Below, one piece after another: positions 1-20,021 of a stretch of DNA of 28,276 nucleotides; position 1 is the first letter of the stretch, and each line of letters opens with the position of its first letter. The DNA comes from a virus. Its lineage: Duplodnaviria > Heunggongvirae > Uroviricota > Caudoviricetes. The stretch is taken from the IMG/VR virus record IMGVR_UViG_2671180294_000004. One strand, written 5' to 3'. The position numbers and the translations under genes are program-made. The notes beneath the pieces are model-generated. The model had not been told where the DNA came from. It saw only the letters and a program-made list of their open reading frames with translations, and searched no databases.

Positions 1-187
1 AACAGATGTCTGGAAATATAGGGGCAAATCCAATCGTCGCCGTATTCCCGTATTAACAGAGACCGTAGCCCGACGGGGAACTCCTCATCATGCCAGCGAG
101 TCCGGTTCTGGCACGGAAGAAACCGGACGTTATGATTTAGTGCGGAAATATTTGTGTAGTGTTCTGTATGTTCTCAGTAAAGAGTAA
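1..187 (+). CDS. 3' end of an upstream ORF entering the window (partial, unknown function)
   Basis: Only plus-strand frame open from position 2 to a TAA at 185..187; the first ~130 nt are GC-rich, unlike the AT-rich DNA that follows. The last ~50 nt overlap the minus-strand ORF, so the true stop is uncertain. Confidence 0.25.
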
Positions 188-562
188 TGAATTATCAAAG
201 GTATAGTAATACCTTTTGTTTTCGTGGATATTTGTAATCCATCTGAAAACCCCTGCTGTAGCAAGATTTTTCCTGTATTCGTAAAATGATAACTCTCCTG
301 ATTTGAATCCTTTTAAGGTGGCTTCTATAAGGCATTTATTTTTTGAAAATCTTACATTTACAACCTTACCCTGTCCTTTTATTAAAACCGTATTATCGTT
401 TTCAAGAACAAGATGAATATTCTCTGTGGCTAAATAGTAAATGTAATGTGAGACATTGTGACGTTTTAGTTCAGAATAAAACCAGTGATAGTTTAAATTA
501 TTTCGCACTTTATCGAATATTTGTTTAAAAATGGCAACCTGAGCCATTGTAGTACCTTCCAT
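137..562 (-). CDS. Hypothetical protein, 141 aa (136 aa if started at the internal Met at 547); AT-rich accessory gene, second gene of a two-gene minus-strand cassette
   Basis: Intact ORF in markedly AT-rich DNA (roughly one-third GC by eye, against about half in the flanking phage genes). A GGAAGG Shine-Dalgarno-like motif precedes the second ATG (547), not the first. No motif I recognise, no obvious signal peptide or transmembrane segment. Lies 42 nt downstream of the RHH gene on the same strand. Confidence 0.55.
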
Positions 563-604
563 GTGATATGAGGGGGCGTAGTCTGCACGATTATCTAAAT
601 TGCT

Positions 605-838
605 TCAATCTGGTCTAACCTGTTTTCTGAGCAATTCAGTAATGTCACTCTTTTCTTTGTTTGCTTCAGGCGAAACTCTTTTTTCTGAGCACAGTCTCCG
701 GCGGCAGGCTTCAATGACCCAGGCTGAGAAATTCCCGGACCCTTTTTGAACAAGAGCGATGTTAATTTGTTCAATCATTTGGTTAGGAAAGCGGATGTTG
801 CGGGTTGTTGTTCTGCGGGTTCTGTTCTTCGTTGACAT
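605..838 (-). CDS. Ribbon-helix-helix (CopG/Arc/MetJ-like) DNA-binding protein, 77 aa
   Basis: The N-terminal segment RNIRFPNQMIEQINIALVQKGSGNFSAWVIEACRRRL fits the RHH pattern (basic beta-strand, then two helices with a G-x-S/N turn). Basic N-terminal tail. Directly upstream of and co-oriented with the 141-aa ORF. Confidence 0.6.
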   Translation of the reverse strand: MSTKNRTRRTTTRNIRFPNQMIEQINIALVQKGSGNFSAWVIEACRRRLCSEKRVSPEANKEKSDITELLRKQVRPD

Positions 839-999
839 GAGGTTGCCCTGTATTCAGTGTCGCTGATTTGTATTGTCTGAAGTTGTTTTTACGTTAAGTT
901 GATGCAGATCAATTAATACGATACCTGCGTCATAATTGATTATTTGACGTGGTTTGATGGCGTAGATGCACGTTGTGACATGTAGATGATAATTATTAT

Positions 1000-1226
1000 C
1001 ATTTTGCGGGTCCTTTCCGGCGATCCGACAGGTTACGGGGCGGAAGGCGCGCGGGTTTTCGCTATTTATGACAATTTTCCGGTTTAAGGCGTTTCCGTTC
1101 TTCTTCGCCGTAACCTAATGTTTTTATTTAAAACACCCCCTGAAAAGAAAGGAAACGACAGGTGCTGAAAACGGGCTTTTTGGCCTCTGTCGTTTCCTTT
1201 CTCTGTTTTTGTCCGTGGAATGAACA
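1000..1226 (+). other. cos: cos DNA-packaging site: cosN-equivalent 12-mer GGGCGGAAGGCG at 1038..1049, with cosQ-side sequence upstream and the cosB region running to the Nu1 start
   Basis: Flanks are near-identical to the lambda genome ends as I recall them (…GATCCGACAGGTTACG | 12-mer | CGCGGGTTTTCGCTATTTATGA…). The 12-mer itself differs from lambda GGGCGGCGACCT at 5 positions. Confidence 0.6.
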
Positions 1227-1746
1227 ATGGAAGTCAACAAAAAGCAGCTGGCTGACATTTTCGGTGCGAGTATCCGTACCATTCAGAACTGGCAGGAACA
1301 GGGAATGCCCGTTCTGCGAGGCGGTGGCAAGGGTAATGAGGTGCTTTATGACTCTGCCGCCGTTATAAGATGGTATGCCGAAAGGGATGCTGAAATTGAG
1401 AACGAAAAGCTGCGCCGGGAAGTTGAAGAACTGCGGCAGGCCAGCGAGACAGATCTCCAGCCAGGGACTATTGAGTACGAACGCCATCGACTTACGCGTG
1501 CGCAGGCCGACGCACAGGAGCTGAAAAATGCCAGAGACTCCGCTGAAGTGGTGGAAACCGCATTCTGTACTTTCGTGCTGTCGCGGATCGCAGGTGAAAT
1601 TGCCAGTATTCTCGACGGGATCCCCCTGTCGGTGCAGCGGCGTTTTCCGGAACTGGAAAACCGACATGTTGATTTCCTGAAACGGGATATCATCAAAGCC
1701 ATGAACAAAGCAGCCGCGCTGGATGAACTGATACCGGGGTTGCTGA

Positions 1747-1772
<26 letters not shown>
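1227..1772 (+). CDS. nu1: Terminase small subunit (lambda gpNu1)
   Basis: 181-aa translation MEVNKKQLADIFGASIRTIQNWQEQGMPVLRGGGKGNEVLYDSAAV… is near-identical to lambda Nu1; it is the first gene after cos. Confidence 0.95.
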
Positions 1773-5453
<3,681 letters not shown>

Positions 5454-5473
<20 letters not shown>

Positions 5474-6773
5474 TCTCCCGCATATTGCCAGCATGGCTTT
5501 TAATGAGCCGCTGATGCTTGAACCCGCCTATGCGCGGGTTTTCTTTTGTGCGCTTGCAGGCCAGCTTGGGATCAGCTGCCTGACGGATGCAGTATCCGGC
5601 GACAGCCTGACTGCCGGAGAGGCACCCGCGGCGCTGGCGTTATCCGGTGATGATGACGGACCACGACAGGCCCGCAGTTATCAGGTAATGAACGGCATCG
5701 CCGTGCTGCCGGTGTCCGGCACGCTGGTCAGCCGGACGCGGGCGCTGCAGCCGTACTCGGGGATGACCGGTTACAACGGCATTATCGCCTGTCTGCAACA
5801 GGCTGCCAGCGACCCGATGGTGGACGGCATTCTGCTCGATATGGACACACCGGGCGGAATGGTGGCGGGAGCATTTGACTGCGCTGACATCATCGCCCGT
5901 GTGCGTGACATAAAGCCGGTATGGGCGCTGGCCAATGACATGAACTGCAGCGCAGGTCAGCTGCTTGCCAGTGCCGCCTCCCGGCGTCTGGTCACGCAGA
6001 CCGCCCGGACAGGCTCCATCGGCGTCATGATGGCTCACAGTAATTACGGCGCTGCACTGGAGAAACAGGGCGTGGAAATCACGCTGATTTACAGCGGCAG
6101 CCATAAGGTGGATGGCAACCCCTACAGCCATCTACCGGATGATGTCCGGGAAACATTGCAGTCCCGGATGGATGCAACCCGCCGGATGTTTGCACAGAAG
6201 GTGTCGGCATATACCGGCCTGTCCGTGCAGGCTGTGCTGGATACCGAGGCTGCAGTGTACAGCGGTCAGGAGGCCATTGATGCCGGACTGGCTGATGAAC
6301 TTGTTAACAGTACCGATGCGATCACCGTCATGCGTGATGCACTGGATGCACGTAAATCCCGTCTCTCAGGAGGGCGAATGACCAAAGAGACTCAATCAAC
6401 AACTGTTTCAGCCACTGCTTCGCAGGCTGACGTTACTGGCGTGGTGCAAGCGACGGAGGGCGAGAACGCCAGCGCGGCGCAGCCGGACGTGAACGCGCAG
6501 ATCACCGCAGCGGTTGCGGCAGAAAACAGTCGCATTATGGGGATCCTCAACTGTGAGGAGGCTCACGGACGCGAAGAACAGGCACGCGTGCTGGCCGAAA
6601 CCCCCGGTATGACCGTGGAAACGGCCCGCCGTATTCTGGCCGCAGCACCACAGAGTGCACAGACGCGCAGTGACACTGCGCTGGATCGTCTGATGCAGGG
6701 GGCACCGGCACCGCTGGCTGCAGGTAACCCGGCATCTGATGCCGTTAACGATTTGCTGAACACACCAGTGTAA
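5454..6773 (+). CDS. C: Prohead protease / scaffold (lambda gpC, S49/ClpP-like)
   Basis: GTG start giving VTAELRNLPHIASMAFNEPLMLEP…, 439 codons as in lambda C. The ORF track extends upstream to 5319 in the same frame, but the lambda-equivalent start is the GTG at 5454, which overlaps the B 3' end. Confidence 0.9.
6378..6773 (+). CDS. nu3: Scaffolding protein (lambda gpNu3), nested in-frame in the 3' part of C
   Basis: Internal ATG at 6378 in the C reading frame giving MTKETQSTTVSATASQADVT… (131 aa), the lambda arrangement of Nu3 within C. Confidence 0.7.
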   Translation: MTKETQSTTVSATASQADVTGVVQATEGENASAAQPDVNAQITAAVAAENSRIMGILNCEEAHGREEQARVLAETPGMTVETARRILAAAPQSAQTRSDTALDRLMQGAPAPLAAGNPASDAVNDLLNTPV

Positions 6774-6782
6774 GGGATGTTT

Positions 6783-7115
6783 ATGACGAGCAAAGAAACC
6801 TTTACCCATTACCAGCCGCTGGGCAATAGTGACCCGGCTCATACCGCAACCGCGCCCGGCGGATTGAGTGCGAAAGCGCCTGCAATGACCCCGCTGATGC
6901 TGGACACCTCCACCCGTAAGCTGGTTGCGTGGGATGGCACCACCGACGGTGCTGCCGTTGGCATTCTTGCGGTTGCTGCTGACCAGACCAGCACCACACT
7001 GACGTTCTACAAGTCCGGCACGTTCCGTTATGAGGATGTGCTCTGGCCGGAGGCTGCCAGCGACGAGACGAAAAAACGGACCGTGTTTGCCGGAACGGCA
7101 ATCAGCATCGTTTAA
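6783..7115 (+). CDS. D: Head decoration protein (lambda gpD)
   Basis: [43 protein letters not shown]…, 110 aa, matches lambda gpD; the ORF track starts 2 codons upstream (6777). Confidence 0.9.
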
Positions 7116-7170
7116 CTTTACCCTTCATCACTAAAGGCCGCCTGTGCGGCTTTTTTTACGGGATTTTTTT

Positions 7171-8196
7171 ATGTCGATGTACACAACCGCCCAGCTGCTG
7201 GCGGCAAATGAGCAGAAATTTAAGTTTGATCCGCTGTTTCTGCGTCTCTTTTTCCGTGAGAGCTATCCCTTCACTACGGAGAAAGTCTATCTCTCACAAA
7301 TTCCGGGACTGGTAAACATGGCGCTGTACGTTTCGCCGATTGTTTCCGGTGAGGTTATCCGTTCCCGTGGCGGCTCCACCTCTGAATTTACGCCGGGATA
7401 TGTCAAACCCAAGCATGAGGTGAATCCGCAGATGACCCTGCGTCGCCTGCCGGATGAAGATCCGCAGAATCTGGCGGACCCGGCTTACCGCCGCCGTCGC
7501 ATCATCATGCAGAACATGCGTGACGAAGAGCTGGCCATTGCTCAGGTCGAAGAGATGCAGGCAGTTTCTGCCGTGCTCAAGGGCAAATACACCATGACCG
7601 GTGAAGCCTTCGATCCGGTTGAGGTGGATATGGGCCGCAGTGCGGCGAACAACATCACACAGTCCGGCGTCACGGAGTGGAGCAAGCGTGACAAGTCCAC
7701 GTATGACCCGACCGACGATATCGAAGCCTACGCGCTGAACGCCAGCGGTGTGGTGAATATCATCGTGTTTGACCCGAAAGGCTGGGCGCTGTTCCGTTCC
7801 TTCAAAGCCGTCAAGGAGAAGCTGGATACCCGTCGCGGCTCTCATTCCGAGCTGGAGACAGCGGTAAAAGACCTGGGCAAAGCGGTGTCCTATAAGGGAA
7901 TGTATGGCGATGTGGCCATCGTCGTGTATTCCGGACAGTACGTGGAAAACGGCGTCAAAAAGAACTTCCTGCCGGACAACACGATGGTGCTGGGGAACAC
8001 TCAGGCTCGCGGTCTGCGCACCTATGGCTGCATTCAGGATGCGGACGCACAGCGCGAAGGCATTAACGCCTCTGCCCGTTACCCGAAAAACTGGGTGACC
8101 ACCGGCGATCCGGCGCGTGAGTTCACCATGATTCAGTCAGCACCGCTGATGCTGCTGGCTGATCCTGATGAGTTCGTGTCCGTTCAACTGGCGTAA
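7171..8196 (+). CDS. E: Major capsid protein (lambda gpE)
   Basis: MSMYTTAQLLAANEQKFKFDPLFLRLFFRESYPFTTEKVYLSQIPGLVNMALYVSPIVSGEV…, 341 aa, matches lambda gpE; the track ORF begins 9 codons upstream (7144). Confidence 0.95.
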   Translation: MSMYTTAQLLAANEQKFKFDPLFLRLFFRESYPFTTEKVYLSQIPGLVNMALYVSPIVSGEVIRSRGGSTSEFTPGYVKPKHEVNPQMTLRRLPDEDPQNLADPAYRRRRIIMQNMRDEELAIAQVEEMQAVSAVLKGKYTMTGEAFDPVEVDMGRSAANNITQSGVTEWSKRDKSTYDPTDDIEAYALNASGVVNIIVFDPKGWALFRSFKAVKEKLDTRRGSHSELETAVKDLGKAVSYKGMYGDVAIVVYSGQYVENGVKKNFLPDNTMVLGNTQARGLRTYGCIQDADAQREGINASARYPKNWVTTGDPAREFTMIQSAPLMLLADPDEFVSVQLA

Positions 8197-8237
8197 TCAT
8201 GGCCCTTCGGGGCCATTTTCTCTCTGTGGAGGAGTTC

Positions 8238-8636
8238 ATGACGAAAGATGAACTGATTGCCCGTCTTCAGGAGCTGGGTGAGCAATTGAACCGCGATGTC
8301 AGTTTGACGGGAACGAAAGAAGAACTGGCGCTTCGTGTGGCAGAGCTGGAAGAAGAGCTTGATGACACGGATGAAACTGCCGGTCAGGACACCCCTCTCA
8401 GCCGGGAAAATGTGCTGACCGGGCATGAAAATGAGGTGGTATCAGCGCAGCCGGATACCGTGATTCAGGATACGGCTGAACTGGTCACGGTCGTGGCACT
8501 GGTGACGCTGCATACTGATGCACTTCACGCCACGCGGGATAAACCTGTGGCATTTGTGCTGCCGGGAACGGCGTTTCGTGTCTCTGCCGGTGTGGCAGCC
8601 GAAATGACAGAGCGCGGCCTGGCCAGAATGCAATAA
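8238..8636 (+). CDS. FI: DNA packaging / head assembly protein (lambda gpFI)
   Basis: MTKDELIARLQELGEQLNRDVSLTGTKEELALRVAELEEELDDTDETAGQDTPLSRENVLTGHENEV…, 132 aa, lambda FI-like; the track ORF has a 13-codon upstream extension from 8199. Confidence 0.85.
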   Translation: MTKDELIARLQELGEQLNRDVSLTGTKEELALRVAELEEELDDTDETAGQDTPLSRENVLTGHENEVVSAQPDTVIQDTAELVTVVALVTLHTDALHATRDKPVAFVLPGTAFRVSAGVAAEMTERGLARMQ

Positions 8637-8647
8637 CGGGAGGCGCT

Positions 8648-9001
8648 GTGGCTGATTTCGATAACCTGTTCGATGCTGCCATTGCCCGCGCCGATGAAAC
8701 GATACGCGGGTACATGGGAACGTCAGCCACCATGACATCCGGTGAGCAGTCAGGTGCGGTGATACGTGGTGTTTTTGATGACCCTGAAAATATCAGCTAT
8801 GCCGGACAGGGCGTGCGCGTTGAAGGCTCCAGCCCGTCCCTGTTTGTCCGGACTGATGAGGTGCGGCAGCTGCGGCGTGGAGACACGCTGACCATCGGTG
8901 AGGAAAATTTCTGGGTAGATCGGGTTTCGCCGGATGATGGCGGAAGTTGTCATCTCTGGCTTGGACGGGGCGTACCGCCTGCCGTTAACCGTCGCCGCTG
9001 A
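8648..9001 (+). CDS. FII: Head-tail connector protein (lambda gpFII)
   Basis: GTG-initiated 117-aa ORF MADFDNLFDAAIARADETIRGYMGTSATMTSGEQSGAVIRGVFDDPENISYAGQGVRVEG… matching lambda FII. Confidence 0.9.
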   Translation: MADFDNLFDAAIARADETIRGYMGTSATMTSGEQSGAVIRGVFDDPENISYAGQGVRVEGSSPSLFVRTDEVRQLRRGDTLTIGEENFWVDRVSPDDGGSCHLWLGRGVPPAVNRRR

Positions 9002-9012
9002 AAGGGGGATGT

Positions 9013-9591
9013 ATGGCCATAAAAGGTCTTGAGCAGGCCGTTGAAAACCTCAGCCGTATCAGCAAAACGGCGGTGCCCGGTGCCGCCGCAATGGCCATTA
9101 ACCGCGTTGCTTCATCCGCGATATCGCAGTCTGCGTCACAGGTTGCCCGTGAGACAAAGGTACGCCGGAAACTGGTAAAGGAAAGGGCCAGGCTGAAAAG
9201 GGCCACGGTCAAAAATCCGCAGGCCAGAATCAAAGTTAACCGGGGGGATTTGCCCGTAATCAAGCTGGGTAATGCGCGGGTTGTCCTGTCCCGCCGCAGG
9301 CGTCATAAAAAGGGGCAGCGTTCATCCCTGAAAGGTGGCGGCAGCGTGCTTGTGGTGGGTAACCGTCGTATTCCCGGCGCGTTTATTCAGCAACTGAAAA
9401 ACGGCCGGTGGCATGTTATGCAGCGTGTGGCCGGGAAAAACCGTTACCCCATTGATGTGGTGAAAATCCCGATGGCGGTGCCGCTGACCACGGCGTTTAA
9501 ACAGAATATTGAACGGATACGGCGTGAACGTCTTCCGAAAGAGCTGGGCTATGCGCTGCAGCATCAACTGAGAATGGTAATAAAGCGATGA
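9013..9591 (+). CDS. Z: Tail completion protein (lambda gpZ)
   Basis: 192-aa ORF MAIKGLEQAVENLSRISKTAVPGAAAMAINRVASSAISQSASQVARETKVRRKL… matching lambda Z. Confidence 0.9.
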   Translation: MAIKGLEQAVENLSRISKTAVPGAAAMAINRVASSAISQSASQVARETKVRRKLVKERARLKRATVKNPQARIKVNRGDLPVIKLGNARVVLSRRRRHKKGQRSSLKGGGSVLVVGNRRIPGAFIQQLKNGRWHVMQRVAGKNRYPIDVVKIPMAVPLTTAFKQNIERIRRERLPKELGYALQHQLRMVIKR

Positions 9592-9983
9592 AACATACTG
9601 AACTCCGTGCAGCCGTACTGGATGCACTGGAGAAGCATGACACCGGGGCGACGCTTTTTGATGGTCGCCCCGCTGTTTTTGATGAGGAAGATTTTCCGGC
9701 AATTGCCGTTTATCTCACCGGCGCTGAATACACGGGCGAAGAGCTGGACAGCGATACCTGGCAGGCGGAGCTGCATATTGAAGTTTTCCTGCCTGCTCAG
9801 GTGCCGGATTCAGAGCTGGATTCGTGGATGGAGTCCCGGATTTATCCGGTGATGAGCGATATCCCGGCACTGTCAGATTTGATCACCAGTATGGTGGCCA
9901 GCGGCTATGACTACCGGCGCGACGATGATGCGGGCCTGTGGAGTTCAGCCGATCTGACTTATGTCATTATCTATGAAATGTGA
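9588..9983 (+). CDS. U: Tail terminator protein (lambda gpU)
   Basis: 131-aa [72 protein letters not shown]… matching lambda U. Confidence 0.9.
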
Positions 9984-9990
9984 GGACGCT

Positions 9991-10731
9991 ATGCCTGTAC
10001 CAAATCCTACAATGCCGGTGAAAGGTGCCGGGACCACCCTGTGGGTTTATAAGGGGAGCGGTGACCCTTATGCGAACCCGCTTTCAGACGTTGACTGGTC
10101 GCGTCTGGCAAAAGTTAAAGACCTGACGCCCGGCGAACTGACCGCTGAGTCCTATGACGACAGCTATCTCGATGATGAAGATGCAGACTGGACTGCGACC
10201 GGGCAGGGGCAGAAATCTGCCGGAGATACCAGCTTCACGCTGGCGTGGATGCCCGGAGAGCAGGGGCAGCAGGCGCTGCTGGCGTGGTTTAATGAAGGTG
10301 ATACCCGTGCCTATAAAATCCGCTTCCCGAACGGCACGGTCGATGTGTTCCGTGGCTGGGTCAGCAGTATCGGTAAGGCGGTGACGGCGAAGGAGGTGAT
10401 TACCCGCACGGTGAAGGTCACCAATGTGGGACGTCCGTCGATGGCAGAAGATCGCAGCACGGTGACGGCGACGACCGGCATGACGGTGACACCCGCCAGT
10501 GCTTCCGTAGTGAAAGGGCAGAGCACCACGCTGACCGTGGCATTCCAGCCGGATGGCGCAACCGACAAGAGCTTCCGTGCGGTGTCTGCGGATAAAACAA
10601 AAGCCACCGTGTCGGTCAGTGGTATGACCATCACCGTGAAAGGTGTTGCTGCAGGCAAGGTCAACATTCCGGTCGTATCTGGTAATGGTGAGTTTGCTGC
10701 GGTTGCAGAAATCAACGTCACCGCCAGTTAA
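9991..10731 (+). CDS. V: Major tail tube protein (lambda gpV) with C-terminal Ig-like domain
   Basis: [50 protein letters not shown]…, 246 aa. The C-terminal T/V/S-rich segment is consistent with the bacterial Ig-like domain of lambda gpV. The track ORF starts 10 codons upstream (9961). Confidence 0.95.
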
Positions 10732-10746
10732 TCCGGAGAGTCAGCG

Positions 10747-11169
10747 ATGTTCCTGAAAACCGAATCATTTGAACATAACGGTGTGACCGTCACGCTTTCT
10801 GAACTGTCAGCCCTGCAGCGTATTGAGCATCTCGACCTGATGAAACGGCAGGCAGAACAGGCGGAGTCAGACAGCAACCGGAAGTTTACTGTGGAAGACG
10901 CCATCAGAACCGGCGCTTTTGTGGTTGCGATGTCCCTGTGGCATAACCATCCGAAGAAGACGCAGATGCCGTCCATGAATGAAGCCGTTAAACAGATTGA
11001 GCAGGAAGTGCTTACCACCTGGCCCACAGAGGCAATTTCTCATGCTGAAAACGTGGTGTACCGGCTGTCCGGTATGTATGAGTTTGTGGTGAATGATGCT
11101 CCTGAACAGGCAGAGGACGCCGGGCCTGCAGAGCCTGTTTCTGCGGGAAAGTGTTCGACGGTGAGCTGA
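10747..11169 (+). CDS. G: Tail assembly chaperone (lambda gpG)
   Basis: 140-aa ORF MFLKTESFEHNGVTVTLSELSALQRIEHLDLMKRQAEQAESDSNRKFTVEDAIRTGAF… matching lambda G. Confidence 0.9.
   Translation: MFLKTESFEHNGVTVTLSELSALQRIEHLDLMKRQAEQAESDSNRKFTVEDAIRTGAFVVAMSLWHNHPKKTQMPSMNEAVKQIEQEVLTTWPTEAISHAENVVYRLSGMYEFVVNDAPEQAEDAGPAEPVSAGKCSTVS
11145..11151 (+). other. Programmed -1 ribosomal frameshift slippery heptamer G GGA AAG for the G-T fusion
   Basis: GGGAAAG lies near the 3' end of G, with GGA and AAG as codons in the G frame, and the T frame is open immediately downstream. This is the canonical lambda G/GT arrangement. Confidence 0.8.
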
Positions 11170-11585
11170 GTTTTGCCCTGAAACTGGCGCGTGAGATGGG
11201 GCGACCCGACTGGCGCGCCATGCTTGCCGGGATGTCATCCACGGAGTATGCCGACTGGCACCGCTTTTACAGTACCCATTATTTTCATGATGTTCTGCTG
11301 GATATGCACTTTTCCGGGCTGACGTACACCGTGCTCAGCCTGTTTTTCAGCGATCCGGAGATGCATCCGCTGGATTTCAGTCTGCTGAACCGGCGCGAGG
11401 CTGACGAAGAGCCTGAAGATGATGTGCTGATGCAGAAAGCGGCAGGGCTTGCCGGAGGTGTCCGCTTTGGCCCGGACGGGAATGAAGTTATCCCCGCTTC
11501 CCCGGATGTGGCGGACATGACGGAGGATGACGTAATGCTGATGACAGTATCAGAAGGGATCGCAGGAGGAGTCCGGTATGGCTGA
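11151..11585 (+). CDS. T: T-frame portion of the tail assembly chaperone fusion gpGT (expressed by -1 frameshift from G)
   Basis: -1 frame ORF …FDGELSFALKLAREMGRPDWRAMLAGMSSTEYADWHRFYSTHYFHDVLLDMHF…, 144 codons, matching lambda T. It has no independent start codon with a ribosome-binding site. Confidence 0.8.
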   Translation: MFDGELSFALKLAREMGRPDWRAMLAGMSSTEYADWHRFYSTHYFHDVLLDMHFSGLTYTVLSLFFSDPEMHPLDFSLLNRREADEEPEDDVLMQKAAGLAGGVRFGPDGNEVIPASPDVADMTEDDVMLMTVSEGIAGGVRYG

Positions 11586-14139
11586 ACCGGTAGGCGATCT
11601 GGTCGTTGATTTGAGTCTGGATGCGGCCAGATTTGACGAGCAGATGGCCAGAGTCAGGCGTCATTTTTCCGGTACGGAAAGTGATGCGAAAAAAACAGCG
11701 GCAGTCGTTGAACAGTCGCTGAGCCGACAGGCGCTGGCTGCACAGAAAGCGGGGATTTCCGTCGGGCAGTATAAAGCCGCCATGCGTATGCTGCCTGCAC
11801 AGTTCACCGACGTGGCCACGCAGCTTGCAGGGGGGCAGAATCCCTGGCTGATCCTGCTGCAACAGGGTGGTCAGGTTAAGGACTCCTTCGGCGGGATGAT
11901 CCCCATGTTCAGGGGGCTTGCCGGCGCGATCACCCTGCCGATGGTGGGGGCCACCTCGCTGGCGGTGGCGACCGGTGCGCTGGCGTATGCCTGGTATCAG
12001 GGCAACTCAACCCTGTCCGATTTCAACAAAACGCTGGTCCTTTCCGGTAATCAGGCGGGACTGACGGCAGATCGTATGCTGGTCCTGTCCAGAGCCGGGC
12101 AGGCGGCAGGGCTGACGTTTAACCAGACCAGCGAGTCACTCAGCGCACTGGTTAAGGCGGGGGTAAGCGGTGAGGCTCAGATTGCGTCCATCAGCCAGAG
12201 TGTGGCGCGTTTCTCCTCTGCATCCGGCGTGGAGGTGGACAAGGTCGCTGAAGCCTTCGGGAAGCTGACCACAGACCCGACGTCGGGGCTGACGGCGATG
12301 GCACGCCAGTTCCATAACGTGACGGCGGAGCAGATTGCGTATGTTGCTCAGTTGCAGCGTTCCGGCGATGAAGCCGGGGCATTGCAGGCGGCGAACGAGG
12401 CCGCAACGAAAGGGTTTGATGACCAGACCCGCCGCCTGAAAGAGAACATGGGCACGCTGGAGACCTGGGCAGACAGGACTGCACGTGCATTCAAATCCAT
12501 GTGGGATGCGGTGCTGGATATTGGTCGTCCTGATACCGCGCAGGAGATGCTGATTAAGGCAGAGGCTGCGTTTAAGAAAGCAGACGACATCTGGAATCTG
12601 CGCAAGGATGATTATTTCGTTAACGATGAAGCACGGGCGCGTTACTGGGATGATCGTGAAAAAAAACGCCTGGAGCGGGATGCAGCCCAAAAGAGGGTAG
12701 ATCAACAGCGTCAACAGGACAAAAATGCGCAGCAGCAGAGCGATACCGAAGCGTCACGGCTGAAATATACCGAAGAGGCGCAGAAGGCTTACGAACGGCT
12801 GCAGACGCCGCTGGAGAAATATACCGCCCGTCAGGAAGAACTGAACAAGGCACTGAAAGACGGAAAAATCCTGCAGGCAGATTACAACACGCTGATGGCG
12901 GCGGCGAAAAAGGATTATGAAGCGACGCTGAAAAAGCCGAAACAGTCCGGCGTGAAGGTGTATGCGGGCGATCGTCAGGAAGACAGTGCTCATGCGGCCC
13001 TGCTGACGCTTCAGGCAGAACTCCGGACGCTGGAGAAGCATGCCGGAGCGAATGAGAAAATCAGCCAGCAGCGCCGGGATTTGTGGAAGGCAGAAAGTCA
13101 GTTCGCGGTACTGGAGGAGGCGGCACAACGTCGCCAGCTGTCCGCACAGGAGAAATCCCTGCTGGCGCATAAAGACGAGACGCTGGAGTACAAACGCCAG
13201 CTGGCTGCACTTGGTGACAAGGTTACGTATCAGGAGCACCTGAATGCGCTGGCGCAGCAGGCGGATAAATTCGCACAGCAGCAACGGGCAAAACGGGCAG
13301 CCATTGATGCGAAAAACCGGGGGCTGACTGACCGGCAGGCAGCGCGGGAAGCCACGGAACAGCGCCTGAAGGAACAGTATGGCGATAATCCTCTGGCGCT
13401 GAATAACGTCATGTCAGAGCAGAAAAAGACCTGGGCGGCTGAAGACCAGCTTCGCGGGAGCTGGATGGCAGGCCTGAAGTCCGGCTGGAGTGAGTGGGAA
13501 GAGAGCGCCACGGACAGTATGTCACAGGTTAAAAGTGCAGCCACGCAGACCTTTGATGGTATTGCACAGAATATGGCGGCGATGCTGACCGGCAGTGAAC
13601 AGAACTGGCGCAGCTTCACCCGCTCCGTGCTGTCCATGATGACAGAAATTCTGCTTAAGCAGGCAATGGTGGGGATTGTCGGGAGTATCGGCAGCGCCAT
13701 TGGCGGGGCTGTTGGTGGCGGCGCATCCGCGTCAGGTGGTACAGCCATTCAGGCCGCTGCGGCGAAATTCCATTTTGCAACCGGGGGATTTACGGGAACC
13801 GGCGGCAAATATGAGCCAGCGGGGATTGTTCACCGTGGTGAATTTGTCTTCACGAAGGAGGCAACCAGCCGGATTGGCGTGGGGAATCTCTACCGGCTGA
13901 TGCGCGGCTATGCGGAAGGTGGTTATGTGGGCGGTGCCGGAAGTCCGGCGCAGATGCGGCGGGCTGAAGGCATTAATTTTAATCAGAACAATCACGTGGT
14001 GATTCAGAACGACGGTACGAATGGTCTGCCAGGTCCACAGATGATGAAGGCCGTGTATGACATGGCCCGCAAGGGTGCCCGTGATGAAATTCAGACACAG
14101 ATGCGTGATGGTGGCCTGTTCTCCGGAGGTGGACGATGA
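11578..14139 (+). CDS. H: Tail tape measure protein (lambda gpH)
   Basis: 853-aa ORF MAEPVGDLVVDLSLDAARFDEQMARVRRHFSGTESDAKK… with the lambda H sequence, a coiled-coil-rich centre and a Gly-rich C-terminal region. Confidence 0.95.
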   Translation: MAEPVGDLVVDLSLDAARFDEQMARVRRHFSGTESDAKKTAAVVEQSLSRQALAAQKAGISVGQYKAAMRMLPAQFTDVATQLAGGQNPWLILLQQGGQVKDSFGGMIPMFRGLAGAITLPMVGATSLAVATGALAYAWYQGNSTLSDFNKTLVLSGNQAGLTADRMLVLSRAGQAAGLTFNQTSESLSALVKAGVSGEAQIASISQSVARFSSASGVEVDKVAEAFGKLTTDPTSGLTAMARQFHNVTAEQIAYVAQLQRSGDEAGALQAANEAATKGFDDQTRRLKENMGTLETWADRTARAFKSMWDAVLDIGRPDTAQEMLIKAEAAFKKADDIWNLRKDDYFVNDEARARYWDDREKKRLERDAAQKRVDQQRQQDKNAQQQSDTEASRLKYTEEAQKAYERLQTPLEKYTARQEELNKALKDGKILQADYNTLMAAAKKDYEATLKKPKQSGVKVYAGDRQEDSAHAALLTLQAELRTLEKHAGANEKISQQRRDLWKAESQFAVLEEAAQRRQLSAQEKSLLAHKDETLEYKRQLAALGDKVTYQEHLNALAQQADKFAQQQRAKRAAIDAKNRGLTDRQAAREATEQRLKEQYGDNPLALNNVMSEQKKTWAAEDQLRGSWMAGLKSGWSEWEESATDSMSQVKSAATQTFDGIAQNMAAMLTGSEQNWRSFTRSVLSMMTEILLKQAMVGIVGSIGSAIGGAVGGGASASGGTAIQAAAAKFHFATGGFTGTGGKYEPAGIVHRGEFVFTKEATSRIGVGNLYRLMRGYAEGGYVGGAGSPAQMRRAEGINFNQNNHVVIQNDGTNGLPGPQMMKAVYDMARKGARDEIQTQMRDGGLFSGGGR

Positions 14140-14465
14140 AAACCTTCCGCTGGAAAGTGAAACCCGGTATGGATGTGGCTTCGGCCCCTTCTGTAAGAAA
14201 GGTGCGCTTTGGTGATGGCTATTCCCAGCGAGCGCCTGCCGGGCTGAATGCCAACCTGAAAACGTACAGCGTGACGCTTTCTGTCCCCCGTGAGGAGGCC
14301 ATGGTACTGGAGTCGTTTCTGGAAGAGCACGGGGGCTGGAAAGCCTTTCTGTGGACGCCGCCTTATGAGTGGCGGCAGATAAAGGTGACCTGCGCAAAAT
14401 GGTCGTCGCGGGTCAGTATGCTGCGTGTTGAGTTCAGCGCAGAGTTTGAACAGGTGGTGAACTGA
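14136..14465 (+). CDS. M: Tail tip protein (lambda gpM)
   Basis: 109-aa ORF MKTFRWKVKPGMDVAS…EFSAEFEQVVN matching lambda M; start overlaps the H stop. Confidence 0.9.
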   Translation: MKTFRWKVKPGMDVASAPSVRKVRFGDGYSQRAPAGLNANLKTYSVTLSVPREEAMVLESFLEEHGGWKAFLWTPPYEWRQIKVTCAKWSSRVSMLRVEFSAEFEQVVN

Positions 14466-15163
14466 TGCAGGATATCCGGCAGGAAACACTGAATGAATGC
14501 ACCCGTGCGGAGCAGTCGGCCAGCGTGGTGCTCTGGGAAATCGATCTGACAGAGGTCGGTGGAGAACGTTATTTTTTCTGTAATGAGCAGAACGAAAAAG
14601 GTGAGCCGGTCACCTGGCAGGGGCGACAGTATCAGCCGTATCCCATTCAGGGGAGTGGTTTTGAACTGAATGGCAAAGGCACCAGTACGCGCCCCACGCT
14701 GATGGTTTCTAACCTGTACGGTATGGTCACCGGGATGGCGGAAGATCTACAGAGTCTGGTCGGCGGAACGGTGGTCCGGCGTAAGGTTTACGCCCGTTTT
14801 CTGGATGCGGTGAACTTCGTCAACGGAAACAGTGACGCCGATCCGGAGCAGGAGGTGATCAGCCGCTGGCGCATTGAGCAGTGCAGCGAACTGAGCGCGG
14901 TGAGTGCCTCTTTTGTACTGTCCACGCCGACGGAAACAGATGGCGCTGTTTTTCCGGGACGTATCATGCTGGCCAACACCTGCACCTGGACCTATCGCGG
15001 CGATGAGTGCGGTTATCACGGTCCGGCGGTCGCGGATGAATATGACCAGCCAACGTCCGACATCACGAAGGATAAATGCAGCAAATGCCTGAGTGGCTGT
15101 AAGTTTCGCAATAACGTCGGCAACTTTGGCGGCTTCCTTTCCATTAACAAACTTTCGCAGTAA
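14465..15163 (+). CDS. L: Tail tip protein (lambda gpL)
   Basis: 232-aa ORF MQDIRQETLNECTRAEQSASVVLWEIDLTEVGGERYFFCNEQNEKGEPVTWQGRQYQPYPIQGSGFELNGKG… matching lambda L. Confidence 0.9.
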   Translation: MQDIRQETLNECTRAEQSASVVLWEIDLTEVGGERYFFCNEQNEKGEPVTWQGRQYQPYPIQGSGFELNGKGTSTRPTLMVSNLYGMVTGMAEDLQSLVGGTVVRRKVYARFLDAVNFVNGNSDADPEQEVISRWRIEQCSELSAVSASFVLSTPTETDGAVFPGRIMLANTCTWTYRGDECGYHGPAVADEYDQPTSDITKDKCSKCLSGCKFRNNVGNFGGFLSINKLSQ

Positions 15164-15168
15164 ATCCC

Positions 15169-15912
15169 ATGACAGAGACAGAATCAGCGATTCTGGCGCA
15201 CGCCCGGCGATGTGCTCCAGCGGAGTCGTGCGGCTTCGTGGTAAGAACGCCGGAGGGGGAAAGATATTTCCCCTGCGTGAATATCTCCGGTGAGCCGGAG
15301 GCGTATTTCCGTATGTCGCCGGAAGACTGGCTGCAGGCAGAGATGCAGGGTGAGATTGTGGCACTGGTCCACAGCCACCCCGGTGGTCTGCCCTGGCTGA
15401 GTGAGGCCGACCGGCGGCTGCAGGTGCAGAGTGATTTGCCGTGGTGGCTGGTCTGCCGGGGGGCGATTCACAAGTTCCGCTGTGTGCCACATCTTACCGG
15501 GCGGCGCTTTGAGCACGGGGTGACGGACTGTTACACGCTGTTCCGGGATGCTTACCATCTGGCGGGGATTGAGATGCCGGATTTTCATCGTGAGGATGAC
15601 TGGTGGCGTCACGGTCAGAATCTCTATCTGGATAATCTGGAGGCCACAGGGCTGTATCAGGTGCCGTTGTCAGCGGCGCAGCCGGGCGATGTGCTGCTGT
15701 GCTGTTTTGGTTCATCGGTGCCGAATCATGCCGCCATTTACTGTGGTGACGGCGAGCTGCTGCACCATATTCCTGAACAACTGAGCAAACGAGAGAGGTA
15801 TACCGACAAATGGCAGCGACGCACACACTCCCTCTGGCGTCACCGGGCATGGCACGCATCTGCCTTTACGGGGATTTGCAACGATTTGGCCGCCGCATCG
15901 ACCTTCGTGTGA
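15169..15912 (+). CDS. K: Tail tip assembly protein (lambda gpK), long form with JAMM/MPN and NlpC/P60 domains
   Basis: Matches lambda K. The long ORF includes an upstream Glu and an HSHPGGLPWLSEAD JAMM-type metal-binding motif, with the Cys/His NlpC/P60-like region downstream. The classical lambda annotation begins at the internal ATG at 15313 (199 aa). Confidence 0.85.
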   Translation: MTETESAILAHARRCAPAESCGFVVRTPEGERYFPCVNISGEPEAYFRMSPEDWLQAEMQGEIVALVHSHPGGLPWLSEADRRLQVQSDLPWWLVCRGAIHKFRCVPHLTGRRFEHGVTDCYTLFRDAYHLAGIEMPDFHREDDWWRHGQNLYLDNLEATGLYQVPLSAAQPGDVLLCCFGSSVPNHAAIYCGDGELLHHIPEQLSKRERYTDKWQRRTHSLWRHRAWHASAFTGICNDLAAASTFV

Positions 15913-16481
15913 AAACGGGTGCCGAAGCCATCCGGGCGATGGCCACACAGCTCCCTGCGTTTCGTCAGAAGCTGAGCGACGGCTGGTATCAGGTGCGTAT
16001 TGCCGGGCAGGATGTTAGCACGTCCGGATTAACGGCGCAGTTACATGAGGCTCTGCCTGACGGCGCTGTGATTCATATTGTTCCCAGAGTCGCCGGGGCC
16101 AAGTCAGGTGGTGTATTCCAGATTGTCCTGGGAGCAGCCGCCATTGCCGGATCATTCTTTACCGCCGGAGCCACCCTTGCAGCATGGGGGGCTGCCATTG
16201 GTGCCGGTGGTATGACCGGCATTCTGTTTTCTCTCGGTGCCAGTATGGTGCTCGGCGGTGTGGCTCAGATGCTGGCACCGAAAGCCAGAACTCCCCGCAC
16301 ACAGACAACGGATAACGGTAAGCAGAACATCTATTTCTCCTCACTGGATAACATGGTTGCCCAGGGCAATGTTATGCCTGTTCTGTATGGTGAAATGCGC
16401 GTGGGGTCACGTGTGGTATCTCAGGAGATCAGCACGGCAGACGAAGGGGACGGTGGTCAGGTTGTGGTGATTGGTCGCTGA
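15810..16481 (+). CDS. I: Tail tip assembly protein (lambda gpI)
   Basis: 223-aa ORF MAATHTLPLASPGMARICLYGDLQRFGRRIDLRVKTGAEAIRA… matching lambda I; overlaps the K 3' end as in lambda. Confidence 0.9.
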   Translation: MAATHTLPLASPGMARICLYGDLQRFGRRIDLRVKTGAEAIRAMATQLPAFRQKLSDGWYQVRIAGQDVSTSGLTAQLHEALPDGAVIHIVPRVAGAKSGGVFQIVLGAAAIAGSFFTAGATLAAWGAAIGAGGMTGILFSLGASMVLGGVAQMLAPKARTPRTQTTDNGKQNIYFSSLDNMVAQGNVMPVLYGEMRVGSRVVSQEISTADEGDGGQVVVIGR

Positions 16482-16541
16482 TGCAAAATGTTTTATGTGA
16501 AATCGCCTCCGGGCGGTTTTATCGTTTATGGAGCATGACGA

Positions 16542-19500
16542 ATGGGTAAAGGCAGCAGTAAGGGGCATACCCCGCGCGAAGCGAAGGACAACCTGAAGTC
16601 CACGCAGCTGCTGAGTGTGATCGATGCCATCAGCGAAGGGCCGGTTGAAGGTCCGGTGGATGGATTAAAAAGCGTGCTGCTGAACAGTACGCCGGTGCTG
16701 GACAGTGAGGGGAATACCAACATCTCCGGCGTCACGGTGGTGTTCCGGGCAGGTGAGCAGGAGCAGTCACCGCCGGAGGGATTTGAATCCTCCGGCTCCG
16801 AGACGGTGCTGGGTACGGAAGTGAAATATGACACGCCGATCACCCGGACCATCACGTCGGCAAACATTGACCGACTGCGTTTTACCTTCGGTGTACAGGC
16901 ACTGGTGGAAACCACCTCAAAGGGAGACAGGAATCCGTCTGAAGTTCGCCTGCTGGTTCAGATACAGCGTAACGGTGGCTGGGTGACGGAAAAAGACATC
17001 ACCATTAAGGGCAAAACCACCTCGCAGTATCTGGCCTCGGTGGTGGTGGATAACCTGCCGCCGCGCCCGTTTAATATCCGGATGCGCAGAATGACGCCGG
17101 ACAGCACCACAGACCAGCTGCAGAACAAAACGCTCTGGTCGTCATACACCGAAATCATCGATGTGAAACAGTGCTACCCGAACACGGCACTGGTCGGCGT
17201 ACAGGTGGATTCGGAGCAGTTCGGCAGCCAGCAGGTGAGCCGTAATTATCATCTTCGCGGGCGCATTCTGCAGGTGCCGTCGAACTATAATCCGCAGACG
17301 CGGCAATACAGCGGTATCTGGGACGGAACGTTAAAACCGGCATACAGCAACAACATGGCCTGGTGTCTGTGGGATATGCTGACCCATCCGCGCTATGGCA
17401 TGGGGAAACGTCTTGGTGCGGCAGATGTGGATAAATGGGCGCTGTATGTCATCGGCCAGTACTGTGACCAGTCGGTGCCGGACGGCTTTGGCAGCACGGA
17501 GCCGCGCATCACCTGTAATGCCTGGCTGACCACACAGCGCAAGGCGTGGGATGTGCTCAGTGATTTCTGCTCGGCGATGCGCTGTATGCCGGTATGGAAC
17601 GGGCAGACGCTGACGTTCGTGCAGGACCGACAGTCGGATAAGGTGTGGGCCTATAACCGCAGTAATGTGGTGATGCCGGATGATGGCGCGCCGTTCCGCT
17701 ACAGTTTCAGCGCCCTGAAAGACCGCCATAATGCCGTTGAGGTGAACTGGATTGACCCGGATAACGGCTGGGAGACGGCGACAGAGCTTGTGGAGGATAC
17801 GCAGGCCATTGTCCGTTACGGTCGTAACGTCACGAAGATGGATGCCTTTGGCTGTACCAGCCGGGGGCAGGCACACCGCGCCGGGCTGTGGCTGATTAAA
17901 ACGGAACTGCTGGAGACGCAGACCGTGGATTTCAGCGTGGGTGCTGAAGGGCTTCGTCATGTACCGGGCGATGTCATTGAAATCTGCGATGATGACTATG
18001 CCGGTATCCGCACCGGCGGGCGCGTGCTGGCGGTGAACAGCCAGACCCGGACGCTGACGCTCGACCGTGAAATCACGCTGCCATCCTCCGGCACCACGCT
18101 GATAAGCCTGGTTGACGGGCAGGGGAATCCGGTCAGCGTGGAGGTCCAGTCCGTCACCGACGGCGTGAAGGTAAAAGTGAGCCGTGTTCCTGACGGTGTT
18201 GCTGAATACAGCGTGTGGGGGCTGAAGCTGCCGACGCTGCACCAGCGATTGTTCCGCTGCGTGAGTATCCGTGAGAACGACGACGGCACGTATGCCATCA
18301 CCGCCGTGCAGCATGTGCCGGAAAAAGAAGCCATCGTGGATAACGGGGCGCACTTTGACGGCGACCAGAGCGGCACGGTGAATGGTGTCACGCCGCCAGC
18401 GGTGCAGCACCTGACTGCCGAAGTCACCGCAGACAGCGGGGAATATCAGGTGCTGGCGCGCTGGGACACGCCGAAGGTGGTGAAGGGCGTGAGCTTCCTG
18501 CTCCGTCTGACCGTAACAGCGGATGACGGCAGTGAGCGGCTGGTCAGCACGGCCCGGACGACGGAAACCACTTACCGCTTCACACAACTGGCGCTGGGGA
18601 ACTACAGGCTGACAGTCCGGGCAGTAAATGCGTGGGGGCAGCAGGGCGATCCGGCGTCGGTATCGTTCCGGATTGCCGCACCGGCAGCGCTGTCGCGGAT
18701 TGAGCTGACGCCGGGCTATTTTCAGATAACCGCAACGCCGCATCTTGCCGTTTATGACCCGACGGTACAGTTTGAGTTCTGGTTCTCGGAAAAGCGGATT
18801 GCGGATATCAGGCAGGTTGAAACCAGCGCCCGCTATCTTGGCACGGCGCTGTACTGGATAGCCGCCAGTATCAATATCAAACCGGGCCATGATTATTATT
18901 TTTACGTTCGCAGTGTGAACACCGTTGGCAAATCGGCATTCGTGGAGGCTGTTGGTCAGCCGAGTGATGATGCATCCGGTTATCTGGATTTTTTCAAAGG
19001 CGAGATAGGGAAAACCCATCTGGCTCAGGAGCTGTGGACGCAGATTGATAACGGTCAGCTTGCGCCTGACCTGGCTGAAATCAGGACGTCCATTACGGAT
19101 GTCAGCAATGAAATCACGCAGACTGTCAATAAGAAACTGAAAGACCAGAGTGCGGCAATCCAGCAGATACAGAAGGTTCAGGTTGATACAAATAATAACC
19201 TGAACAGCATGTGGGCTGTGAAGCTGCAGCAGATGCAGGACGGACGCCTTTATATCGCGGGTATTGGTGCCGGTATTGAGAACACCCCTGACGGCATGCA
19301 GAGTCAGGTGCTGCTGGCGGCGGACAGGATTGCGATGGTTAATCCTGCGAATGGCAACACAAAACCGATGTTTGTTGGTCAGGGCGATCAGATATTCATG
19401 AACGACGTGTTCCTGAAACGCCTGACGGCTCCCACCATTACCAGCGGCGGTAATCCTCCGGCATTTTCCCTGACACCGGACGGAAAACTGACCGCTAAAA

Positions 19501-20021
19501 ATGCAGATATCAGTGGCAGTGTGAATGCGAACGCCGGGACGCTCAACAATGTCACAATTAATGAGAACTGTCAGATTAAGGGGAAACTGTCAGCCAACCA
19601 GATTGAAGGCGATATAGTCAAAACAGTGGGTAAGGCTTTTCCGCGGGACTCCCGGGCACCGGAGCGGTGGCCATCAGGGACCATTACCGTCAGGATTTAT
19701 GACGATCAGCCTTTTGACAGGCAAATTGTTATTCCGGCGGTGGCATTCAGCGGCGCTAAACATGAGCGGGAGAATAACGATATTTATTCGTCATGCCGCC
19801 TGATAGTACGGAAAAACGGTGCTGAAATTTATAACCGTACCGCGCTGGATAATACGCTGATTTACAGTGGTGTTATTGATATGCCAGCTGGTCGCGGCCA
19901 CATGACGCTGGAGTTTTCGGTGTCAGCATGGCTGGTGAATAACTGGTATCCCACAGCAAGTATCAGCGATTTGCTGGTTGTGGTGATGAAGAAAGCCACC
20001 GCAGGCATCAGTATCAGCTGA
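16542..20021 (+). CDS. J: Central tail fibre / host specificity protein (lambda gpJ-type), 1159 aa
   Basis: [54 protein letters not shown]… is lambda J-like over most of its length, followed by a C-terminal receptor-binding region. Confidence 0.95.

Follow-up and report, generated by a model that had tools for sequence, protein, structure and literature searches.

In the 28,276-nt stretch of viral DNA deposited as IMGVR_UViG_2671180294_000004 (Caudoviricetes; the whole of this stretch is referred to here as 'the window'), two small genes lie on the minus strand close to the cohesive-end site, cos: one coding for a protein of the DUF1398 (YbcV/YdfO) family and, upstream of it, one coding for a YlcI/YnfO-type (DUF3950) protein. 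We conclude that, taken as a whole, the most probable description of this locus is that of a right-end accessory region common to lambda-family phages, in the arrangement found in the Qin prophage of Escherichia coli K-12, and comprising two separately maintained genes rather than a two-component system. Both genes are already known and catalogued—their families, their positions in lambda and K-12, and one structure being on record—and the locus is not a new toxin–antitoxin (TA) or defence cassette, the possibility raised by an earlier, sequence-only reading of this DNA.

The list of open reading frames (ORFs) places the two at 137–562 (141 amino acids, aa) and 605–838 (77 aa), separated by a gap of 42 nt; both sit ~200 bp to the left of cos and, just as the sequence-only reading described, on the opposite strand to the late operon. 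That reading also had the downstream gene as strikingly AT-rich, and its G+C content is indeed 0.317, as against 0.444 for the upstream gene and 0.568 for the late operon (1227–20021). Of the placement it proposed, between the end of the phage right arm and cos, the cos side holds; the end of the right arm is invisible here because the window begins just 136 nt past the first gene (137–547). Family assignment is unequivocal for both products. The 141-aa protein, previously described as lacking any recognisable motif, is a full-length DUF1398 protein (Pfam PF07166: E 3.3e-43, 147 bits versus a cut-off of 22, profile positions 1–119 of 119) that also matches PHROG 413, whilst the 77-aa protein matches DUF3950 (PF13132: E 2e-20, 72.8 bits versus 25), NCBIfam YlcI_YnfO_N (35.2 bits versus 30) and PHROG 949 (E 6e-33). 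RefSeq annotates the corresponding prophage genes as 'DUF1398 domain-containing protein' and 'YlcI/YnfO family protein'.

Neither gene is new to this position. Lambda carries both, between its lysis genes and cos and in the same orientation, with homologous DNA on both sides of an interruption: window positions 86–621 align to the lambda right end at 83% identity and 676–1037 at 95%, and the first 100 bases upstream of the YnfO-type gene differ from lambda at one position only (99/100). Between window positions 621 and 676, lambda has an additional ~613 bp, on which the convergent, ybcW-like gp79 lies and through which the small protein acquires a different and shorter tail (64 aa); the order in lambda (and O276) thus reads bor, gp78 (DUF1398, minus), gp79 (plus), YlcI/YnfO ORF (minus), cos. 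Lambda gp78 (lambdap78) is labelled 'putative envelope protein' and the YlcI/YnfO ORF is unnamed; bor, to the left, is a further feature of lambda. The lambda arrangement is that of ybcV-ybcW-ylcI-nohD in the DLP12 prophage, whereas the window, with its two genes adjacent, has that of ynfO-ydfO in Qin: the same two families, in the same order, on the same strand and with the same adjacent spacing, beside the cos/nohA region of the prophage. Saying this, the DUF1398 allele of the window is ~20% diverged from Qin YdfO, and Qin is a decayed, cryptic prophage whereas the one described here retains an intact lambda-like late operon. The idea of a novel, inserted cassette is consequently at odds with the presence of both genes in lambda and of ylcI-ybcV and ynfO-ydfO in K-12; the caveat attached to it, that lambda-like phages might already carry homologues annotated as DUF or hypothetical proteins, describes exactly what we find.

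The two genes also have separate histories. Within our phage collection the YnfO-type gene occurs in 155 records and DUF1398 in 43, leaving ~112 of the 155 in which the small gene stands without its partner. In Shiga toxin (Stx) phages it occurs by itself, with an HNH endonuclease-TerS-TerL module 42 bp away in divergent orientation; the gene concerned (for example, gp69 of Stx2a_WGPS8 or of JLK-2012) shares the 50-residue core seen here, with 86–90% protein identity, and the same divergent placement before the packaging genes, but has a different C-terminal tail, no DUF1398 downstream, and unrelated DNA upstream, an HNH endonuclease taking the place of cos-Nu1. Conversely, distant DUF1398 genes are single chromosomal genes set amid housekeeping genes, at 26 loci in Escherichia (ycgX type), Citrobacter, Klebsiella, Kluyvera, Pseudocitrobacter and Salmonella diarizonae, and none of the 26 has a copy of the small protein that a profile search could detect. 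Together, the lone small genes, the orphan DUF1398 genes, the exchanged tails and the unrelated upstream DNA identify the core of the small, DNA-binding-like gene as the conserved unit, rather than the pair. Of 5426 complete E. coli genomes, 4162 carry that core (150 nt), with 9861 occurrences in all and as many as 12 in one genome; phage-type DUF1398 (at least 80% coverage) is found in 3011 of the same 5426, and the exact allele (at least 99% identity) in 1063 records.

Amongst close relatives the pair is nevertheless well kept: in 79 of 80 IMG/VR loci with a 97–100% identical 77-aa protein, DUF1398 follows 45–48 nt downstream. We attribute this to common descent rather than to coupling, since the loci are close relatives of one another. 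In the single exception (L057), an IS5-type transposase gene (438–1454) stands directly after the small gene, in place of DUF1398. Across the 80 loci the same small gene precedes two DUF1398 alleles (100% and 75% identical), and the identity of the upstream Nu1 varies between 36 and 100%.

Both genes are real, and not chance ORFs, because their family scores far exceed the curated cut-offs and their ratios of non-synonymous to synonymous substitution (dN/dS) are low: 0.04–0.10 for the YnfO-type core when compared between clades (dS up to 1.6), and 0.19–0.35 for the DUF1398 alleles. By this measure, both proteins are functional; selection on them is of the ordinary purifying kind and bears no sign of an arms race. 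Accessory or 'moron' status, as suggested in the sequence-only reading, fits well with the atypical composition (0.317 versus 0.568), the variable presence of DUF1398 (43/155, and the one IS5-associated loss), and the dispensability of the lambda homologue for lytic growth: CRISPR-interference knock-down of lambdap78 gave plating efficiencies of 1.9 and 1.3, and the gene was scored non-essential (PMC10695390). A moron would also be expected to have a promoter and terminator of its own and to be expressed from the repressed prophage; here a promoter-like site lies directly upstream of the gene (590–617), no terminator is visible in the 136 nt that the window holds downstream, and the K-12 paralogues are transcribed. 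The lambda morons bor and lom are alike in being non-essential, variably present, of atypical composition, and located in the late region against or independently of the late operon; Bor and Lom are, however, outer-membrane proteins with known phenotypes, whereas the DUF1398 protein is predicted to be cytoplasmic. The coordinates of all features are collected in Table 1.

Table 1. Features of the cos-proximal accessory region and the basis on which each was assigned.
Feature	Position	Strand	Basis or remark
DUF1398 (YbcV/YdfO family) coding sequence	137..547	-	136 aa from M6, the most likely start; mechanical ORF extends to 562 (141 aa)
Sigma-70 promoter-like site, TAGACC-16 nt-GATAAT	590..617	-	consensus scan, 9/12 matches
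YnfO-type protein, variable C-terminal tail (residues 51–77) and stop codon	605..688	-	tail comparison, lambda alignment
PdhR-box-like sequence, AACAGGTTAGACCAGAT	608..624	-	homology to K-12 genomic-SELEX site
YlcI/YnfO (DUF3950) conserved 50-residue core, RHH-like	689..838	-	PF13132, YlcI_YnfO_N
YnfO-type gene upstream region	839..1007	.	contains inverted repeat 908–940
cos (context): cosQ GGGTCCT 1008–1014 and cohesive-end segment GGGCGGAAGGCG 1038–1049	1008..1049	+	sequence, lambda alignment

Working through the DUF1398 product, translation most likely begins at M6 (giving a coding sequence of 137–547 and 136 aa), as the codons for 'MEG' spell out a Shine-Dalgarno sequence (GGAAGG) 7 nt before the M6 ATG, most homologues begin at this residue, RefSeq gives a length of 411 nt in a 99% identical prophage, and residues 1–5 are unstructured in our model. 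The protein is ~80% identical to E. coli YdfO, so that a close paralogue already has a solved structure, determined by nuclear magnetic resonance (NMR; PDB 2HH8). A first structure prediction, made with a shallow alignment of close relatives, was unusable (predicted local distance difference test, pLDDT, of 48); a second, using 53 sequences and including the distant chromosomal homologues, gave a model with a pLDDT of 89 and a predicted template modelling score of 0.81, composed of two alpha-alpha-beta-beta-beta halves. This model shares its fold with YdfO. Beyond the family itself, a Foldseek search of the model against PDB and BFVD gave no significant match, and we read no function into its weak hits. 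The protein is basic (isoelectric point 9.4) and aromatic-rich, no hydrophobic segment was found in it, and we predict that it is soluble and cytoplasmic. Four positions are invariant across the family (T46, N48, G104 and Y119) and, judging from the alignment, do not look catalytic as a set.

The DUF1398 family is a small one, with just 196 cluster representatives among 1.84 billion at E ≤ 0.001, and, going by source names, is confined to the Enterobacteriaceae. Apparent members in Pseudomonas, Kitasatospora, Flavobacterium and so on were set aside as contamination, being lambda right-end DNA on small contigs, and not as evidence of host range. Such DNA, running from gp78 to cos and often on contigs of ~3.5 kb, turns up in assemblies that bear the names of Pseudomonas, Kitasatospora, Brevibacillus, Flavobacterium, Bradyrhizobium and others; it looks like contamination from a sequencing control, by which the apparent host range of DUF1398 is inflated.

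The YlcI/YnfO-type protein is strongly basic and consists of a near-invariant 50-residue core (42 invariant columns across five variants) followed by one of four unrelated tails (lambda, Stx and JLK-2012 types). The core displays a pattern reminiscent of ribbon-helix-helix (RHH) proteins: alternating hydrophobic residues in a short strand, a proline, a helix, a G-x-S/N turn and a second helix, in register with the ribbon and first helix of Arc and preceded by a basic N-terminal arm. It resembles, in both core pattern and arm, the RHH repressors (P22 Arc and Mnt, CopG) and RHH antitoxins, but differs from them in having no obligate partner gene and no significant sequence or profile match. We regard an RHH fold for the core as likely but unconfirmed.

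Within this core, codons 7–14 (797–821, minus strand; ACC CGC AGA ACA ACA ACC CGC AA) are near-invariant at the nucleotide level across the four sequences compared, in clades that elsewhere show a synonymous divergence of 0.8–1.6; the heptad ACCCGCA occurs there in two copies, 15 nt apart. The conservation may reflect a constraint at the level of DNA or RNA, for example an internal operator or a translation-initiation region. At the other end of the gene, its TGA stop lies in frame with the DUF1398 ORF and 14 codons from it (563–607). A fused, 233-aa protein linking the two genes (P0013, 761 member sequences) was discarded as an artefact of gene calling in which TGA is read as tryptophan (genetic code 4), and programmed read-through was rejected because the spacing in relatives varies between 45 and 48 nt, such that the frame relation is not kept.

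Upstream of the DUF1398 gene, the promoter-like site at 590–617 lies directly before the gene, within the 3' end of the YnfO-type gene, and falls in the block (window 86–621) that lambda retains together with its own DUF1398 gene. It is overlapped by the PdhR-box-like sequence at 608–624, which is identical to a K-12 site mapped in Qin between ynfO and ydfO by genomic SELEX (systematic evolution of ligands by exponential enrichment; AAcaGGTcagACCAgaT) save for one base of the unspecified spacer. In K-12, genomic-SELEX sites for PdhR have been reported just upstream of both ybcV and ydfO, the site at ybcV/ybcW in DLP12 being equivalent, and ybcV mRNA falls 10-fold in a pdhR mutant, i.e. PdhR activates ybcV (PMC7660256). 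By homology, the site in the window would probably serve PdhR as well.

Other published observations come from K-12, lambda and satellites. ynfO and ydfO are counted among the uncharacterised genes of Qin, and for ycgX nothing could be inferred. Ionic-liquid shock strongly induces ydfO (PMC4077768). ybcW-ylcI appears in a published list of convergent excludons, a class reported in no fewer than 50% of the RNA-sequencing samples analysed (PMC12288877), which implies that ylcI is transcribed in the cryptic prophage. Overexpression of YbcV leads to a glycogen-deficient phenotype, in cells that reach stationary phase (PMC2853380), and the YnfO-type core has been noted among the accessory genes of two capsid-forming satellites (phage-inducible chromosomal islands, PICIs) with their own TerS and TerL (PMC13612085). 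We discarded a statement that YdfO overexpression protects against oxidative stress (PMC4077768) as a confusion with YfdO, because the work cited there (PMC3105296) reports on YfdK, YfdO and YfdS of CPS-53 and never on ydfO.

From these strands we would propose the following. The small YlcI/YnfO protein would act as a dimeric transcription regulator produced in the prophage, its core being stationed, in many lambdoid phages, at the boundary between lysis and packaging genes and facing away from the latter, with whatever follows it downstream free to vary. The DUF1398 gene would have its own promoter, probably under the control of the host pyruvate sensor PdhR if K-12 is a guide, and its product, an orphan YdfO fold, would bind a host partner and act on the physiology of the host, with carbon or glycogen metabolism as possible targets, and not on the growth of the phage. 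As transcription of both genes runs counter to that of the late operon, efficient expression would be expected only when late transcription is off, i.e. in the lysogen. The analysis directly establishes the family identities, the DUF1398 fold, the conservation and mutual independence of the two genes, the purifying selection on them and, from published data, the dispensability of the lambda homologue; we infer, rather than observe, DNA binding by the small protein, expression of this copy in the prophage state, control by PdhR and a host-directed role.

Several observations weigh against this account. For DNA binding, the RHH assignment in the sequence-only reading is plausible as a pattern but is not confirmed statistically: hhalign placed RNIRFP of the core on FNLRWP of Arc over just 17 columns with a probability of 1.7%, and found no match to CopG, and PDB searches with the 77-aa sequence and with its profile gave no match. 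For expression, the best promoter candidate upstream of DUF1398 scores 9/12, lambda being identical to it at the GATAAT hexamer only, and a scan of 839–1007 revealed no strong minus-strand promoter for the YnfO-type gene. The PdhR and glycogen data come from the DLP12 paralogue, which is ~76% identical, and not from this allele, and no experiment in the literature searched assigns a function to a protein of the one family or the other. In addition, the pairing in 79 of 80 relatives leaves room for co-transcription, and some functional coupling may exist within the sub-type that carries the 77-aa tail.

One alternative is a type II TA system, with the YnfO-type protein as antitoxin and autorepressor and DUF1398 as toxin. 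The locus has the outward form of such a module, in that a small gene for a basic, RHH-like protein precedes another small, co-oriented gene by 42 nt, the protein has a C-terminal tail beyond its DNA-binding-like core, and the pairing is kept in 79 of 80 close relatives; across wider relatives, however, the two genes do not obligately co-occur (the 26 orphan chromosomal loci and the ~112 of 155 phage records being the clearest cases), and in lambda the tail has been replaced and a convergent gene stands between them. Moreover, neither Pfam, NCBIfam nor PADLOC gave a match to a toxin family, the invariant residues of DUF1398 include no conserved catalytic ones, clones overexpressing YbcV reach stationary phase, and YdfO was produced for its NMR structure, from which we judge bacterial overexpression to be tolerated. 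We consider a TA system very unlikely. Anti-phage defence or superinfection exclusion by one or both genes, in a cos-proximal accessory slot, fares somewhat better and is still improbable: accessory position, atypical composition, variable presence, an orientation suited to the lysogen, and several divergent DUF1398 alleles swapped behind a near-identical YnfO-type gene are all in keeping with it, but the dN/dS of DUF1398 is that of ordinary purifying selection, non-phage paralogues (ycgX, the Kluyvera and Citrobacter orphans) sit amid housekeeping genes, neither protein contains an enzymatic or sensor domain, and no defence screen in the literature searched names the family. Nor does PADLOC-DB 2.0 support it, yielding no defence model for either protein (for the 141-aa protein only Csx23 at E 0.025 and 12.6 bits, which is noise; for the 77-aa protein nothing).

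An alternative that separates the two genes would have the YnfO-type protein serve the packaging module, for instance by keeping terminase or cos cleavage silent in the prophage, with DUF1398 as unrelated cargo. Wherever it occurs, the core sits directly upstream of packaging genes in divergent orientation, be these genes lambda-type with Nu1 alleles of 36–100% identity or the unrelated HNH-TerS-TerL of Stx phages, and it is likewise listed for the two PICI satellites, whose TerS and TerL are their own (PMC13612085); it is furthermore very strongly constrained. Against this, the upstream DNA of lambda-type and Stx-type YnfO genes is unrelated and a motif search for a common operator found none outside the coding sequence, no experiment links the YnfO-type protein to packaging, and recombination history can by itself yield positional linkage; overall, we think this proposal unlikely. 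For DUF1398 as a component of the virion or envelope, nothing speaks but the database labels 'head protein' (PHROG 413, RefSeq phage records) and 'putative envelope protein', and we regard this as the least credible proposal of all: the gene runs opposite to the late operon and lambdap78 is non-essential, so that the evidence contradicts the labels.

What remains of interest is that the phage studied best of all has, at its right end, two genes that are strongly conserved, occur in most E. coli genomes and lack an assigned function; control by PdhR, the glycogen phenotype and the linkage to packaging modules offer leads. At its most ambitious, a case could be made for the YnfO-type core as an unrecognised prophage-state regulator at the lysis/packaging boundary, and for DUF1398 as an effector under PdhR control, acting to rewire the carbon metabolism of the host or to block other phages; we would give this rather low odds. 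Were it so, the regulator might silence terminase or cos cleavage or mediate cross-talk between co-resident prophages, and might act via the nucleotide-invariant ACCCGCA pair in its own 5' coding region.

A number of features surround the two genes. Between the small gene and cosQ, 70–100 nt upstream of the former, lies an inverted repeat (908–940) with 13-nt arms (ATCAATTAATACG / CGTCATAATTGAT) and a spacer of 7 nt; it belongs to the 100-base upstream stretch that is 99% identical to lambda. An Rfam scan of 1–1300 returned noise only. To the right of cos, Nu1 (1227–1772) is followed by a complete lambda-like late operon; to the left, near-identical prophages continue with a hypothetical gene, a KilA-N gene and the lysis genes. 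A co-oriented 53-aa ORF is annotated directly downstream of the DUF1398 gene in near-identical phages (3751–3912 in PhiR49_1), and its counterpart here would be truncated by the start of the window.

The cos site itself is a variant. With cosQ (GGGTCCT) at 1008–1014 and the alignment to the lambda right end stopping at 1037, the 12-nt cohesive end starts at 1038; its sequence (1038–1049, GGGCGGAAGGCG) differs from that of lambda (GGGCGGCGACCT) at 6 of 12 positions, within flanks that are lambda-like on either side, cosQ and the cosB side included. The same variant is carried by 7 of the 61 related IMG/VR loci with a readable site, the other 54 having the lambda sequence.

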